From: a virus
Taxonomy: Duplodnaviria > Heunggongvirae > Uroviricota > Caudoviricetes
Length of the DNA stretch: 34,061 bases
Direction: 5' to 3' (one strand)
Virus record (IMG/VR): IMGVR_UViG_2734482587_000013
Shown: piece after piece, positions 3,813-14,446 of the stretch
Layout: each line of letters starts with the position of its first letter
Position numbering within the stretch: position 1 is the stretch's first letter
Translations under genes and position numbers: made by a program
Notes under the pieces: generated by a model
Told to the model about the DNA's origin: nothing
Database searches by the model: none
What the model saw: the letters and a program-made list of their open reading frames with translations, nothing else

Positions 3813-4008
3813 GCTTCACCTCGATCGGCTTGATGGTATCGATCAGCAGTCGGCGGCGAGTATTTTCTGCAAAGTGGCGGCGTCCGGTTTCTTTGTGGTA
3901 AAACTCGTTTTTTCCGACGACCCACATCCGCTTTGTCTGGTGCAGTTTTTTTACCTGCGGACCGTCTCGGGTGATAACAATTCCTGTATGAGTTTTTATC
4001 ACGCTCAT
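3805..4008 (-). CDS. Hypothetical small prophage protein (67 aa)
   Basis: ORF start overlaps the stop of the upstream yfdS-like gene; same operon. Confidence 0.35.
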   Translation of the reverse strand: MSVIKTHTGIVITRDGPQVKKLHQTKRMWVVGKNEFYHKETGRRHFAENTRRRLLIDTIKPIEVKHV

Positions 4009-4367
4009 TTCTTATTCTCCGGTGCTTTTGGCATTACTGCCCAGTGAGTGATATTGACGTTTTCAAGGTCCCCGACCTGAAATGTCCACTGCCATTCTCC
4101 GGTTTCTTTTTGTCCCCAGGTGTACCAGAGGGAACGCCAGCCAATCAGCCAGCCTTCTCCGTTAGCATCAAATAACAGAACACTTTCATTTGCTGGCGGC
4201 AGTTCAGCTGACACTGGTATTATTTTGTTTTCCAGTGCCGCACATTTAGCTTCAAGCGCGTCGAATTTACGTACCAGGTACTCGGCATTTGTTTCGTTCA
4301 CTTTCAGATCTCGCGGTACACATTTTCCGCGAAGAAACCCTTCCATTTCGAAAACATTCATGCGCAT
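4005..4367 (-). CDS. yfdS: YfdS-like protein (120 aa, DUF551-like C-terminus)
   Basis: 120 aa as I recall for CPS-53 YfdS; Trp-rich motif GWLIGWRSLWYTWGQKETGEWQW; sits downstream of the YfdR/YfdQ/YfdP-like genes in the same order I recall for E. coli K-12 CPS-53. Confidence 0.5.
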   Translation of the reverse strand: MRMNVFEMEGFLRGKCVPRDLKVNETNAEYLVRKFDALEAKCAALENKIIPVSAELPPANESVLLFDANGEGWLIGWRSLWYTWGQKETGEWQWTFQVGDLENVNITHWAVMPKAPENKK

Positions 4368-5911: not shown

Positions 5912-6274
5912 TTAATGACCTGCTGCGCGGAGTTTTCCGTCAGGCTCACCGGCAAGAGTCAGTAATTGTCCCTGGTCTTCCTGCAGAATAGTCAGGCGAC
6001 CACCGCGATTGACATACATCGGCGTTTCGGTGGTGTCTTCTTCGGAAATTTTCCCGCGGTTAGTCGGGCGAACATATGAGAGTTTGTGTTTGATTTTCAC
6101 ACGGTTCTCATCAAACGGTTCGATTTCCAGGTTGAGCGAGACCTTACCTTTGGTTTTCGTGTTCATCACACCGGAAGCGACTTCACTGAGAACTGCGCCG
6201 ATTTTGGTTTCAAATACGCCGCCGTCCAGCTCCCCGATAAATGCCTGCACATCAGTACTGCGTTCGCTAGCCAT
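5912..6274 (-). CDS. yfdP: YfdP-like protein (120 aa from the internal ATG); first gene of the leftward early operon
   Basis: Minus ORF 5912-6487; internal ATG at 6274 is preceded by GAGGAG and gives a 120-aa product MASERSTDVQAF.... The upstream in-frame extension overlaps inverted repeats and lacks an SD. Confidence 0.5.
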   Translation of the reverse strand: MASERSTDVQAFIGELDGGVFETKIGAVLSEVASGVMNTKTKGKVSLNLEIEPFDENRVKIKHKLSYVRPTNRGKISEEDTTETPMYVNRGGRLTILQEDQGQLLTLAGEPDGKLRAAGH

Positions 6275-6321
6275 TTGCTGCTCCTCATCATATCGACCCT
6301 GCAAGGTCGGTTGGTTTCTCC

Positions 6322-6455
6322 ACAAAACAGAGAAGAACACCTGCGGTGCAGCCGCCCGGATGGATTGGGTTATGAGCCCGTCGTCCGGTGATGCTCTTCT
6401 CTGTTTTGTAAAAAGAGCGGTACCAGCCGGAAGCAAGTGTACAAACTGGTACCGC
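6322..6455. repeat. Two adjacent perfect inverted repeats in the 5' leader of the leftward early operon: IR1 15-bp arms (6322-6336 / 6395-6409, 58-nt loop); IR2 10-bp arms each containing GGTACC (6417-6426 / 6446-6455, 19-nt loop)
   Basis: Read directly: ACAAAACAGAGAAGA ... TCTTCTCTGTTTTGT and GCGGTACCAG ... CTGGTACCGC. On the minus-strand RNA a boxA-like CGCUCUUUUUA lies between IR2 and IR1. Function unknown. Confidence 0.7.
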
Positions 6456-6859
6456 CAAAGCAGTGGCTGTTGTGGTGGGGTTGTCACTCAGGCGTATGGT
6501 CAACCTGACAATCCGGTGTCCTCAACGGGGAAAGAGTAACCCCGCCATACTTACCGCCGCGCCATTTCGCGGATTACCACAACGCTGAGAGCACTTAGCC
6601 AGTTACGGCACCACACTTTGTCGCGGTTCCATAAATGCCATCATCGTTGCACCCTGGTCTCTTCCCAGGCGTCAAACCGAATCGCCACGCTGGTTAGGCG
6701 TCTTATCAGCATCCTCATTGACTTGCACATTCCGGCTACCTGGTTTGTTTGCCCGAGCAAGGAGTGGATTGTCCCCTTTAACGTCCCCAGACCGCTAACG
6801 ACGCATGTGCCATACGCCGTGTTACAACCAAATTTTGTCAGGACCTTGTTTGTTGGTCT

Positions 6860-6930
6860 GGAAAGAAAGATAAAATGAAATTGCGTAACGTGCAAGTATT
6901 TTATTGCGAGACATGCAATAGCGTGAGTAA
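6860..6930 (-). promoter_or_regulatory. Candidate leftward early promoter/operator region (pL/oL analogue)
   Basis: Two TTGC-N7-GCAA dyad sites (6881-6895 TTGCGTAACGTGCAA; 6904-6918 TTGCGAGACATGCAA) with the same pattern as a site in the cI-cro intergenic region; sigma70-like hexamers on the minus strand are only moderate matches. Confidence 0.3.
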
Positions 6931-6953
6931 TGAAAAGCCACCTTCTGGTGGCT
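6928..6953 (-). terminator. Rho-independent terminator downstream of the CI-like repressor gene
   Basis: On the minus strand: AGCCACC-AGAA-GGTGGCT followed by TTTTCATT; about 20 nt beyond the repressor stop codon. Confidence 0.6.
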
Positions 6954-6974
6954 AATTGATGTTGAGGTAGGGGG

Positions 6975-7667
6975 TTAATTGTGTCGCTTAAGGGTTTGTG
7001 ACTGACTGATTAAGACCTTTCCAAAGACCATAAACCGGTGTTCGTTTTCGCTGGTAATTCCCCATTCGCGGTAAATCTGATTATCAGAAATTACCAGCAG
7101 TTTATCAGGTATCATTTGCAGTCGTTTGACGTAAATTTTATCATCAAAACCAAATACATATATACCATCCCCATCAAACTGATTGATACTGATATCAACG
7201 AAGATGAGATCTCCTGGCTCAATGGTTGGACACATACTGTCCCCACGAACGTTGATAACTTTAATGTGATTTGCTGGTCGTCCACCAAACATCGATACAG
7301 CATTATCAGTTCTGTATTCAATGGCATGAATCACATCAATGACATCACCGCCCTGGATAAGGCCATTTCCCGCACTGGCACTGACATCCAGCATTTCAAT
7401 ACGGAATACATCCTTCACCTGCGCAACATCCTCACTAATACTGTTTTTACATACAGTATTACTTTTGAGGTCTGAGGTAAAGAGATCAGCAATATCAACA
7501 CCTAAGCTCCTGGCAATATTACTCAGGGCTTGTTCAGTGAATTGTTTCTGCTTACCTGTTTCGAGGCGCGAGATATTCGCCGCATCCACTCCTATTGCTT
7601 CAGCGAGATCGGCGATTTTCATGTTCTTCGCCTGGCGAAGTTGTCTGACTCGATTTCCTATGTTCAT
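6975..7667 (-). CDS. CI-like immunity repressor (N-terminal XRE-type HTH plus C-terminal S24 LexA-like autopeptidase domain)
   Basis: HTH segment IADLAEAIGVDAANISRLETGK; S24 catalytic Ser/Lys context (VRGDSMCPTI ... IYVKRLQ). No SD before the ATG, consistent with a leaderless pRM-type mRNA as in lambda cI. Confidence 0.8.
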   Translation of the reverse strand: MNIGNRVRQLRQAKNMKIADLAEAIGVDAANISRLETGKQKQFTEQALSNIARSLGVDIADLFTSDLKSNTVCKNSISEDVAQVKDVFRIEMLDVSASAGNGLIQGGDVIDVIHAIEYRTDNAVSMFGGRPANHIKVINVRGDSMCPTIEPGDLIFVDISINQFDGDGIYVFGFDDKIYVKRLQMIPDKLLVISDNQIYREWGITSENEHRFMVFGKVLISQSQTLKRHN

Positions 7668-7764
7668 GCGTTTATTACATTTCTTTATTGCGCGTTAAGC
7701 AAATCAACTTGCGCAAAATATTTGCGTGAAATAATATGCTCATCACGCAATATGTGGAGGTTAT
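7668..7764. promoter_or_regulatory. Divergent immunity control region (pRM/pR analogue with operator-like dyads)
   Basis: TTGCGCGTTAAGCAA (7688-7702, TTGC-N7-GCAA) and palindrome CGCAAA-ATA-TTTGCG (7712-7726). Rightward TTGCGC-17-TAATAT hexamers upstream of cro. Leftward TTGCTT-17-TGTAAT ending about 6 nt before the cI ATG. Confidence 0.45.
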
Positions 7765-8025
7765 ATGCAATCACCATTACGGAATGTGCGTAAGGCGCAC
7801 GGATTTACTTTGCAGCATGTTGCTGCGGGCGTTCAGGTCAATCCAGCGACGCTGAGTCGTATTGAAAGACTGGAACAAATTCCATCTATCGATCTTGCAG
7901 AACGTCTGGCCAATTTTTTTAAGGGTGAAATCAGCGAAATGCAGATTCTTTATCCGGCACGTTTTCAATCTAGCCAAAACCAGAATGGGTTTAAACCACA
8001 GGAACAGGAGGTAAGCCGTGGGTAA
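7765..8025 (+). CDS. Cro-like XRE-family HTH regulator
   Basis: HTH FTLQHVAAGVQVNPATLSRIERLEQIPS; GGAGG 4 nt upstream of ATG; divergent from the CI-like gene. Confidence 0.65.
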   Translation: MQSPLRNVRKAHGFTLQHVAAGVQVNPATLSRIERLEQIPSIDLAERLANFFKGEISEMQILYPARFQSSQNQNGFKPQEQEVSRG

Positions 8026-8569
8026 GCATCATTGGAAAGTGGAAAAACAACCCGAGTGGTACGTGAAAGCTGTCAGAAAAACTATCGCGGCATTGCCTGG
8101 GGGTTACGCTGAAGCTGCTGACTGGCTGGATGTAACAGAGAACGCTTTATTCAACCGCCTTCGTGCAGATGGCGATCAGATTTTCCCGCTGGGATGGGCA
8201 ATGGTTTTACAGCGTGCTGGTGGCACTCACTTCATTGCTGACGCTGTGGCGCAGTCTGCAAATGGCGTCTTTGTGTCTCTTCCTGACGTCGAGGATGTGG
8301 ACAACGCCGATATCAACCAACGCCTGCTGGAAGTCATTGAACAGATCGGCAGTTATTCAAAACAGATTCGTTCAGCAATTGAAGACGGTGTAGTGGAACC
8401 GCATGAGAAGACAGCAATTAATGATGAATTGTATCTGTCAATTTCGAAGCTCCAGGAGCATGCGGCACTGGTCTACAAAATTTTCTGCGCTCCAGAAAAG
8501 AGTGACGCCCGCGAGTGTGCAGCTCCGGGCGTCGTGGCGTTTTGTGTCTGTGGAGAAACTAACGCATGA
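8018..8569 (+). CDS. Phage 186-type CII-like regulatory protein (CP76 family)
   Basis: Position immediately after cro; segment NALFNRLRADGDQIFPLGWAMVLQRAGGTHFIADAVAQ parallels the 186 CII segment (...LRNKLNPEQPHQFTPPELWLL...DGFLAQ) as I recall it. Confidence 0.5.
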   Translation: MGKHHWKVEKQPEWYVKAVRKTIAALPGGYAEAADWLDVTENALFNRLRADGDQIFPLGWAMVLQRAGGTHFIADAVAQSANGVFVSLPDVEDVDNADINQRLLEVIEQIGSYSKQIRSAIEDGVVEPHEKTAINDELYLSISKLQEHAALVYKIFCAPEKSDARECAAPGVVAFCVCGETNA

Positions 8570-8714
8570 ACAGTTTAACGGCAAATAACCGTTTGTCGCA
8601 ACAGCTGGTGGTCAGTGTCGCTGCACACCTGTTGTTACGGCATGAATGCAGATTACCAAATCACCTGGCTGTAAGTAACCACAGAGAACTTTACCTGACT
8701 GTGGGGGGCGAGTT

Positions 8715-8894
8715 GTGCAGGAACTTAACCGCTGGTTTCGTGACGGAAGAGGACTTTATGTTCATGTTATTCGTTGGGAGCCAGAAACACAGCGCGTTAT
8801 CTATCTTCGCAAAGACTACCCGCATGAGTGCTTTAGTCCTTTGTGGAAATTCAGGCGTGATTTTGTTGAGTGTGAAGGACCACCAGCACATTGA
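8715..8894 (+). CDS. Possible small protein (59 aa, GTG start) in the gap between the CII-like gene and rha
   Basis: Frame differs from the long 8566-9714 ORF. Translation VQELNRWFRDGRGLYVHVIRWEPETQRVIYLRKDYPHECFSPLWKFRRDFVECEGPPAH has a protein-like mix of charged and aromatic residues; G-rich stretch upstream of the GTG. Below the ORF-track cut-off. Confidence 0.3.
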   Translation: MQELNRWFRDGRGLYVHVIRWEPETQRVIYLRKDYPHECFSPLWKFRRDFVECEGPPAH

Positions 8895-9168
8895 TTCTGC
8901 CATTCCGGGACGTTACACTGTTCAGGCACCTTATAAAGCGGGTGCCGGGATTGGCGTCCTGGAATTGCATACGGCGACAATTGGCGCGTTAGCGTCTTTT
9001 TTGTTGCTACAACTCAGCTATACCCAAATTATGGTGGGCTGGGTGGGGGCACCGAAAGGTGCGCCGGTTTCCGTATGCGCCGGTTACGCCAACCCTGCTC
9101 AGTTCACCACCAGCGAAATTGGCGTTTCCGGTGGTGGAAGTTATCCATTGCATACGGAGGCTGCCATC

Positions 9169-9714
9169 ATGGCTACGATCCCTGCCTTAGTTCAACCTGA
9201 ACTTTGCATTATTGCAGACAAAGTTGTTACTTCTTCTCTGGCTGTTGCTAGTTATTTCGGCAAACAACACAAAAACGTCATTCAAAAAATTGCGTCTCTT
9301 GAATGCTCTGCCGAATTTACTGAGCTGAATTTCCAGCTCAGTGAGTACATCGACGCATCAGGCCGCAAACTACCTTGCTATCAAATAACCCGCGACGGCT
9401 TTGCGTTTCTTGCTATGGGTTTCACGGGTAAACGTGCTGCCCAGTTCAAAGAGGCATACATCAATGCCTTTAACCAGATGGAGAAACAGCTTTCAAAGCC
9501 CGCTGTACCGAGCGACGTTGCACATAACGCCAGCGTTCTCTGTTCCTACATTTCATCAATTCATCAGGTCTGGCTGCAGCAGCTTTATCCTATGTTGGCA
9601 AAAGCCGAATCTCCGCTGGCTGTTAGCTTATATGACTATATTAATGATGCTTCGGCGCTGGCCTGCCTCATAAATTTGTCGCTGAACCCTTCAGAGGTAA
9701 GGGGGCGCAAATGA
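9169..9714 (+). CDS. Rha-family phage regulatory protein
   Basis: Internal ATG at 9169 preceded by GGAGG with 8 nt spacing; product MATIPALVQPELCIIADKVVTSSLAVASYFGKQHKNVIQKI... matches the Rha (Phage_pRha) N-terminal domain pattern. The in-frame 8566-9168 extension has non-protein-like composition. Confidence 0.6.
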   Translation: MATIPALVQPELCIIADKVVTSSLAVASYFGKQHKNVIQKIASLECSAEFTELNFQLSEYIDASGRKLPCYQITRDGFAFLAMGFTGKRAAQFKEAYINAFNQMEKQLSKPAVPSDVAHNASVLCSYISSIHQVWLQQLYPMLAKAESPLAVSLYDYINDASALACLINLSLNPSEVRGRK

Positions 9715-14429: not shown

Positions 14430-14446
14430 TTTTGTGGAGAAAGTTG

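Follow-up and report, generated by a model that had tools for sequence, protein, structure and literature searches.

Results

The gap between yfdP and the repressor gene is a mosaic of structured RNA modules

The window analysed here is the whole of a 34,061-nucleotide (nt) viral record (IMG/VR IMGVR_UViG_2734482587_000013), an SfV/mEp460/cdtI-type lambdoid prophage of E. coli to which strain APEC 102026 is 100% identical across the query. On its minus strand the first early-left gene, yfdP (5912-6274, start codon at 6274), is separated from the gene of a cI-like S24/HTH repressor (6975-7667) by a gap of 700 bases (6275-6974), and a cro-like gene (7765-8025) lies on the plus strand. The Prokaryotic Genome Annotation Pipeline (PGAP) places no feature in the gap in the identical genome, and none of the five mechanically called open reading frames (ORFs) tested there has a Pfam match. 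A prediction made from the letters alone had described this gap as an ORF-free leader with two perfect inverted repeats and a boxA-like motif, in which no N-like gene could be recognized. Its freedom from ORFs held, and the leader proved to be a mosaic of three conserved structured RNA modules, here called C, B and A in leftward order, on the leftward minus-strand transcript, for which strand, secondary structures, homologies and distribution were observed. This mosaic of separately conserved modules, and the most elaborate structure in it (6649-6821, outside both repeats), had not been part of the original prediction.

The mosaic was evident from BLAST comparisons with phages and with yfdP loci of many genera, in which the gap splits into segments with different relatives. 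Segment 6275-6477 travels with yfdP; segment 6461-6583 matches Qin, P1 and PPompW-type phages and also an Actinobacillus phage; and segment 6577-6833 matches phiV10-type phages, P1/P7, and prophages of Kosakonia and Phytobacter. Searching Rfam 15 with the whole window at gathering thresholds, and with 6100-7100 at E up to 10, returned only chance-level miRNA and hairpin-ribozyme matches for the leader. ARAGORN, including runs at relaxed thresholds, found no tRNA at any leader module and none in the window, and no second copy of any leader module is present in the rightward (pR) operon. A 13-nt match at 14430 considered as a repeat of a leader module was set aside as an ordinary Shine-Dalgarno region.

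Module A reproduces the core of the initiator tRNA anticodon stem-loop

Module A (6322-6409, minus strand) lies in the 5' untranslated region (UTR) of yfdP and contains the longer of the two repeats, whose 15-base pair (bp) arms are exact at 6322-6336 and 6395-6409 and which extends to 25 nt at 84% complementarity. A 20-bp stem (6409-6390/6341-6322) closes a three-way junction with arm 1 (6388-6353) and arm 2 (GCGG-CUGCA-CCGC, 6354-6342). Minus-strand folding of 6316-6412 gave -48.8 kcal/mol (z -7.5), with 0 of 200 shuffles as good. The original prediction had asked for compensatory changes among relatives, and these were found: across 18 sequences from at least 10 named genera, 92.9% of alignment cells are paired (93.6% for the 20-bp stem alone) versus 34-55% when the partners are slid, 18 pairs carry double changes, and 0 of 500 shuffles did as well. 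The module always takes the same place, between a DicF-like terminator and the ribosome-binding site of yfdP, and the layout in ST64B is the same.

The apical hairpin of module A, CGGGCUCAUAACCC (6367-6380, minus), shares 14 of 14 bases with the anticodon stem-loop core of E. coli initiator tRNA-fMet (K-12 metZ and metY), the shared bases being three G:C pairs and the loop CUCAUAA. When module A was compared with the metY region, CGGGCUCAUAACCC was the top-scoring and the only 14-nt match. The motif occurs 50 times in the compared loci, the 45 listed of these 50 all lying within module-A-type hairpins, and most module A homologues retain the anticodon-arm copy. The remainder of the module is not tRNA-like, matching neither ARAGORN under relaxed settings nor an Rfam tRNA model. 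Towards the gene, the rest of the yfdP 5' UTR (6275-6321, minus) folds at -8.5 kcal/mol and comprises a conserved single-stranded GGAGAAACCAAC (6321-6310), a small hairpin (6309-6294) and the Shine-Dalgarno sequence GAGGAG (6286-6281); in the 18-sequence alignment a conserved single-stranded GGAGAAACYAAC, then the small hairpin, follow 3' of module A.

Module B resembles DicF- and STnc100-type small RNAs

Module B (6410-6583, minus) occupies the slot of a DicF/STnc100-type small RNA. Its closing stem pairs GUUGUGGU (6583-6576) with ACCACAAC (6476-6469) around three hairpins (6572-6557, 6546-6524 and 6511-6481, the last with loop GGUUGACCAUACGCCUGAG), and is followed by a single-stranded 12-nt linker, AGCCACUGCUUU (6468-6457), and an intrinsic terminator (6410-6456). 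This terminator is the second, shorter repeat: its 10-bp arms are exact at 6417-6426 and 6446-6455 with 19 nt between them, and the U tract UCUUUUU (6416-6410) follows directly. The stretch 6408-6462 folds at -21.2 kcal/mol (z -4.1; 0 of 200 shuffles as good), so that both repeats fold far better than shuffled sequence on the minus strand. Compensatory changes preserve both structures in other genera; for the terminator, pairing and U tract persist with a different stem sequence in Enterobacter, Kosakonia, Phytobacter, Providencia and others.

Over 123 nt module B is 89.4% identical to the K-12 Qin sequence directly 5' of dicF. Alignment with Qin and P1 revealed compensatory changes, and the DicF terminator stem GGCGGUAYCAG aligns together with its U tract. 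By inspection, the layout of module B is that of the STnc100 consensus (closing stem UGGUG/CACCA, inner hairpins, linker, terminator). We assign the 10-bp repeat as the terminator of a DicF/STnc100-type slot because of the Qin identity, the alignment of the DicF terminator and the STnc100 layout. Relatives at this slot gave sub-threshold matches to DicF (28.4, 20 and 19.8 bits; gathering threshold of RF00039, 48 bits; K-12 control, 76.7 bits) and to STnc100 (45.1 bits in an E. coli locus, L004, 39.5 in SfII and 35.1 in ST64B; gathering threshold of RF02076, 47 bits). Taken together, the sequence comparisons suggest that module B is a new variant of DicF/STnc100-type small RNA. The loop of DicF that pairs with ftsZ differs in module B, and when RNAduplex was used to look for pairing of module B around the start of ftsZ, K-12 DicF itself, as the control, was no better than shuffles.

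Two observations concern relatives of this module. In seven loci from several genera (L007, L022, L026, L027, L029, L030 and L031) the loop of the DicF-like terminator holds an insertion of ~40 nt with a conserved GAGGAUGAUGAUAAUGUUCUG, located ~100-200 nt upstream of the yfdP homologue; GAGGAUGAUGAUAAUGUUCUG resembles a Shine-Dalgarno sequence with a five-codon mini-ORF. The Actinobacillus phage vB_Apl-pPE4 (6147-6262) has 85% identity over ~110 nt to the body of module B (6465-6574), a match by which the DicF-precursor-type hairpin reaches outside Enterobacterales.

The terminator also accounts for the boxA-like motif. The string CGCUCUUUUUA is present as predicted, at 6420-6410 on the minus strand, but it is not a free boxA: it is made up of the final three stem bases of the terminator (6419-6417), the base on their 5' side and the U tract. 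What follows the string is a 20-bp stem and not the boxB hairpin of a nut site.

The perfect palindromes, one of them with a KpnI-like GGTACC core, could instead be duplex DNA sites, namely protein-binding palindromes or signals for recombination or replication. This is very improbable. Both repeat sequences change between genera while pairing is kept, by G-U pairs and double substitutions that fit a minus-strand RNA only; the G-U pairs would be A-C mismatches on the other strand, and the U tract is always 3' of the 10-bp repeat and on the minus strand only. Among the element types that had been offered for the leader, an RNA on the leftward strand is retained, with small RNA and processing element as the best fits, and a nut or put site or a protein-binding DNA site is not.

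Module C is a large structured RNA with two pseudoknots

The core of module C, ~170 nt long (6649-6821, minus), comprises five helices and two pseudoknots. Sequences were collected with an exact 19-mer taken from its best-conserved block; at least 120 viral contigs contained it, with 102 distinct variants among them, from which 43 representatives below 93% pairwise identity were aligned; the columns of the 19-mer, which include the 3' side of pseudoknot 1 (PK1), are invariant by design and carry no information on pairing. The alignment consists of invariant blocks (~50 invariant positions) between hairpins that vary in length and sequence. Helix P1 (6819-6812/6806-6799) is a local hairpin whose loop, GGCAC, contributes to PK1 (6810-6807/6728-6725, GUGC). 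P2 (6795-6788/6742-6735) is variable and, in the clade of the window, has a three-way junction inside; P3 (about 6720-6703) is likewise variable. The short P4 (6701-6698/6690-6687) offers its loop to pseudoknot 2 (PK2, 6695-6692/6678-6675), where CACC/GGUG changes to AACC/GGUU, and P5 (6669-6665/6657-6653) ends in the loop GAAGAGA. In this structure 97.8% of cells are paired versus 25-47% with partners slid, 12 pairs show double changes, and 0 of 500 shuffles reached the covariation score. G-U pairs fix the strand of module C as the minus strand of the window. RNAalifold favoured a long-range GCACAU/AUGUGC pairing over the local P1; we kept P1 since it co-varies, and four pairs of GCACAU/AUGUGC were placed as PK1, which is invariant and hence predicted only. 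A tertiary contact between a P2 loop CCUU and the P5 loop was dropped as it showed no co-variation.

Downstream of the core a tail hairpin with a 16-bp stem (6580-6649, minus) pairs the 5' arm CAACGAUGAUGGCAUU (6649-6634) with the 3' arm AGUGCUCUCAGCGUUG (6595-6580). It was found in the minimum free energy fold, and the conserved sequence past P5 is its 5' arm. Other loci have 13 distinct arm pairs with compensating changes, as judged by eye, the scripted pair counts being out of register. The arms are similar in sequence to those of module A, and a boxA-like GUGCUCU (6594-6588) is base-paired within the 3' arm. In phiV10-like phages a tRNA-Arg gene begins directly after the tail stem, and the homology with phiV10-type phages stops at the 5' end of the tRNA.

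These alignments bear on whether the gap is a decayed or unrecognised coding region, such as an N-like pseudogene or the small proteins annotated in mEp460. Mechanical ORFs of 71-86 aa do exist in the gap, and some phage records give hypothetical proteins here, for example mEp460_036 and mEp460_037. These annotated ORFs are, however, on the plus strand, while the G-U pairs assign the RNA to the minus strand, and besides the negative PGAP and Pfam results, substitutions obey the rules of base pairing rather than of codons and indels among homologues, including those behind the length variation of module C, are not multiples of three. A coding origin thus has hardly any likelihood. The predicted absence of an N-like gene was borne out in the window, where no gap ORF has a family match, and in mEp460, SfII, ST64B, cdtI and Stx2c phages, which have no N gene at this position and hold noncoding sequence only.

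Module C matches no family in Rfam 15; the P1, phiV10-type and mEp460 copies were also unmatched at gathering thresholds, and the P1 copy at E up to 10 as well. A literature search by sequence string and topic gave no description of C, which could be contained in a 2023 catalogue of ~10,000 candidate phage RNAs (PMC10690425). With ~50 positions that do not vary, two pseudoknots and peripheral hairpins that do, C is reminiscent of known aptamers and ribozymes, and it is found at junctions where RNAs need separating. It might therefore control or process the transcript, either as a ligand-sensing riboswitch or as a self-cleaving ribozyme. We regard this as improbable, since no Rfam family of either kind matches C even at E up to 10, the genes downstream are wholly different between contexts (ban, tRNA-Arg, or a small RNA and yfdP), and no expression platform overlaps the core, the nearest terminator being ~190 nt away.

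Module C is widespread and found in varied contexts

A covariance model of module C (R1) scored 135.6 bits at the leader, its single copy in the window, and found no module C in HK022, Qin, ST64B or the yfdP loci without the 19-mer. The module is present in lambdoid, Stx-converting (Stx2), P1-like and phiV10-like phages, with counts of 79 phage records, 594 plasmids and 1833 of 5426 complete E. coli genomes (about a third). The plasmids are mostly non-mobilizable replicons of ~90-100 kb, which we take to be P1-like phage-plasmids. Among the matches listed, none carries an RNA annotation and a few carry a hypothetical protein over the module.

In several prophages C starts ~10-110 nt from a clear sigma-70 promoter downstream of a cI-like gene, and at one locus (L063) its P1 stem begins ~7 nt past the -10 element. 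For 45 of 128 copies a same-strand tRNA lies no more than 1.5 kb away, mostly abutting the element or 75-140 nt past its core: P1-like elements have a tRNA (anticodon CAU) whose end meets the 5' edge of C, and in phiV10-like phages tRNA-Arg(UCU) starts 75-140 nt past the core. Because C abuts tRNAs, tRNA processing would set one of its ends. In P1 the module lies between trnI and ban, downstream of a dicF-like terminator. SfII has kept the promoter, the terminator, module A and the downstream operon, and of C only a ~35-nt relic. In these varied contexts and in view of the SfII relic, C behaves as a movable cassette, dispensable for a viable phage of this type. We regard it as probable accessory RNA cargo, comparable to the tRNAs and small RNAs found in its place or beside it in related arrays.

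Several of these arrays were inspected individually. The P1 ban operon (68.6-72.7 kb) has the same module set in another order: Pban, B-like hairpins, a "dicF-like region", two tRNAs, tciABC, trnI, module C and ban. In the phiV10-like O157 typing phage 9 (1850-2930) an opposite-strand moron between the terminase and portal genes consists of a promoter region, module C, the tail hairpin, tRNA-Arg(UCU) and an ORF, and a related locus (L056) has a DicF-like terminator and hairpin between tRNA and ORF. The relic in SfII (3950-4010, minus) derives from the first hairpin of C; an opposite-strand moron and STnc100-like sequence replace the rest.

The position of module C at the head of early transcripts raises the question of antitermination. 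Module C or module A could be a cis-acting processive antiterminator, an analogue of HK022 put, by which polymerase reads through the module B terminator and later ones. Several features speak for this: an N-like gene is missing, the first ORF is separated from C by an intrinsic terminator, C is as complex as might be expected of an RNA bound to a large machine, and in several phages it lies just past pL-type promoters as putL does in HK022 (PMC9378689). Early-operon control in the N-less ST64B/mEp460/LLS lambdoid phages is moreover an acknowledged open point, for which specialists suggested a put RNA in a 2025 study of this related group (PMC12315714). Against this, a put covariance model (R2), built from 7 put sequences with the putL position confirmed by the annotations of HK75, O276 and HK639, scored 93.5 bits for putL and 47 for putR of the HK022 controls versus at best 7.4 bits (E 1.7) in the 34-kb window, and that match is outside the leader; the predicted put-like site is thereby not supported. 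C is single-copy, with nothing repeated in the pR operon. SfII has the same terminator, module A and operon with just the C relic, and ST64B has no C. In P1 the module is downstream of the dicF-like terminator, just before ban, and in phiV10-like phages it heads a short moron. Module A, for its part, cannot suppress the B terminator because it is located after it. An antiterminator in the leader is thus unlikely.

Predicted transcription signals upstream of the modules

Between module C and the repressor gene lie the predicted signals for leftward transcription. Two OL-type operator palindromes of the form TTGC-N7-GCAA (6881-6918; ATTGCATGTCTCGCAAT at 6918-6902 and TTGCACGTTACGCAA at 6895-6881) recur in direct and inverted orientation in the OR region (7684-7752), and the repressor would presumably bind them. 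A predicted pL promoter (6867-6895, minus) has a -35 element TTGCAC (6895-6890), a 17-nt spacer and a -10 element TATCTT (6872-6867). The same geometry, TTGCGY-17-TATCTT, occurs downstream of cI-like genes in two unrelated loci (L042 and L072), and because of this shared geometry we place the probable start of the leftward transcript near 6860. As the promoter scores below the threshold of a consensus promoter scan, we infer it rather than count it as detected.

The repressor gene has its own intrinsic terminator (6932-6953, minus; hairpin 6953-6936), with an AGCCACC/GGUGGCU stem followed by UUUUC. It was found by a terminator scan, folds at -12.3 kcal/mol (z -4.4), and coincides in place with a terminator annotated in SfII. 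The hairpin at 6936-6953 scores as a terminator on the plus strand too and could stop any rightward antisense transcripts that traverse the leader.

A separate observation concerns the rightward side of the window. Matches to isrK (61.2 bits) and C4 antisense RNA (80.7 bits) at 8926-9114 on the plus strand fall within a coding sequence at 8566-9714, a 382-aa "Rha family" PGAP call whose first ~190 codons are probably non-coding; the arrangement resembles the c4-ant region of P1 immI.

Discussion

We propose, with a probability of roughly 70%, that the gap is the untranslated head of a repressor-controlled pL transcript, built as a tandem array of RNA cassettes on the plan of dicBF, and not a decayed N/nut region. 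Transcription from near 6860 would produce module C first and then the long tail hairpin; the next product would be the module B small RNA, ending at the intrinsic terminator (6456-6410). Part of the polymerases would stop there, giving a non-coding RNA of ~450 nt, and the remaining polymerases would continue across module A into the yfdP-yfdQ-yfdR operon. The long stems at 6649-6580 and 6409-6322 would most likely be processing sites of the RNase III type, at which the precursor is cut into separate RNAs, and such cuts would define where the small RNA ends and where the yfdP mRNA begins. Both stems, with 20 bp in module A and 16 bp in the tail, provide the approximately two turns of double-stranded RNA at a junction of RNA units that are typical of such sites. 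Partial termination, RNase III cleavage and any trans-acting role of the products are, like the promoter position, what we infer from this arrangement.

Several points weigh against this proposal. The assignment to RNase III draws on position and stem length only, and the conserved three-way junction together with the tRNA-fMet mimic suggests a role for module A more specific than that of a cleavage site. In several phages C is the first element at the 5' terminus of the pL-type transcript, which is also where an element acting in cis could be expected. For module B, the window copy has no DicF or STnc100 match in Rfam even at E up to 10 (6100-7100), and the DicF 5' seed, UUUCUGGUGACG, is absent from it in the alignment with Qin and P1.

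A further reading, which we put forward tentatively as possible though doubtful, is that module C belongs to an undescribed class of phage structured RNA with a defined activity directed at the host or at transcription, and that the initiator-tRNA anticodon-arm copy in module A might be a decoy or competitor. Candidate activities of C would be processive antitermination independent of N and put, or service as a decoy for a host RNA-binding enzyme. For the mimic in module A, candidate targets would be toxins of the VapC/MvpT type, which cleave tRNA-fMet (PMC7180214), methionyl-tRNA synthetase, or the P site of the 30S subunit. If C or the tRNA mimic does have a defined target, this would be a new kind of phage-host RNA interaction.

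For this N-less phage, then, the window has no HK022-type put RNA and no nut site, and its pL leader is probably an RNA cassette array on the dicBF plan. Seen in this way, the question of early-operon control in N-less phages splits into parts that can each be tested. Module C is a widespread, unnamed structured RNA found in P1, Stx2 phages and a substantial share of complete E. coli genomes, and many enterobacterial genera preserve, in the 5' UTR of their first early-left gene, an identical copy of the anticodon arm of initiator tRNA. Regardless of any target, the analysis provides three RNA features for annotation at places where records are left blank or filled with spurious ORFs.

Comparison with known systems

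HK022 is likewise lambdoid, without N, and has a structured RNA just past pL (PMC9378689). Its put RNAs are ~70 nt with two stem-loops and occur in both early operons, whereas module C is ~170 nt, has five helices and two pseudoknots, and is single. STnc100 (RF02076), a prophage small RNA of Salmonella and E. coli, shares its layout with module B and differs from it in the inner hairpins, which in module B are of the Qin dicF-precursor type.

In phage tRNA clusters such as the P1 ban operon, module C is co-transcribed with, and abuts, tRNAs, whereas the window itself has no tRNA. The species 1 and 2 RNAs of T4 are extra stable RNAs in a phage tRNA cluster.

The metY operon has the order initiator tRNA (a stable RNA), terminators, hairpin and mRNA, and Regnier and Grunberg-Manago are said to have reported in 1989 that the hairpin in its leader, before the mRNA, is an RNase III site. 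All that the E. coli metY-rimP-nusA-infB leader has in common with module A is the 14-nt anticodon arm of tRNA-fMet, and homology of module A to the metY-rimP leader was rejected since only this 14-mer matches. The phage copy of the arm, moreover, sits atop a long stem in a 5' UTR and not in a tRNA.

The closest likeness is to the dicBF operon of the K-12 prophage Qin (ydfABC-dicF-dicB), which is also a repressor-controlled early operon of a lambdoid prophage. In both, a structured precursor precedes a small RNA that ends at a Rho-independent terminator; a stem of 20 bp or more follows, and after it the Shine-Dalgarno sequence for the ORF downstream. The Qin stem has 21 bp, beginning six bases past the U tract of dicF and ending shortly ahead of the ribosome-binding site of dicB. 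At the dicF-dicB junction, published work documents termination as well as read-through and processing by RNase III, and the 3' end of the published 72-nt DicF is made by RNase III from read-through RNA (PMC9438474); we located this end inside the 5' arm of the 21-bp stem. By position and geometry, module A would be the counterpart of the Qin RNase III site. The two systems differ in the downstream gene (dicB in Qin, yfdP in the window), in module C, which has no Qin counterpart, and in the interior of the hairpin after the terminator, a three-way junction with the tRNA-fMet mimic in the window and an STnc100-like body in Qin. In the dicF-dicB interval of Qin (2433-2642) this body is a sub-threshold STnc100 match of 34.4 bits enclosed by the 21-bp stem, and this nesting suggests that units of the DicF and STnc100 types belong to a single building plan used repeatedly.

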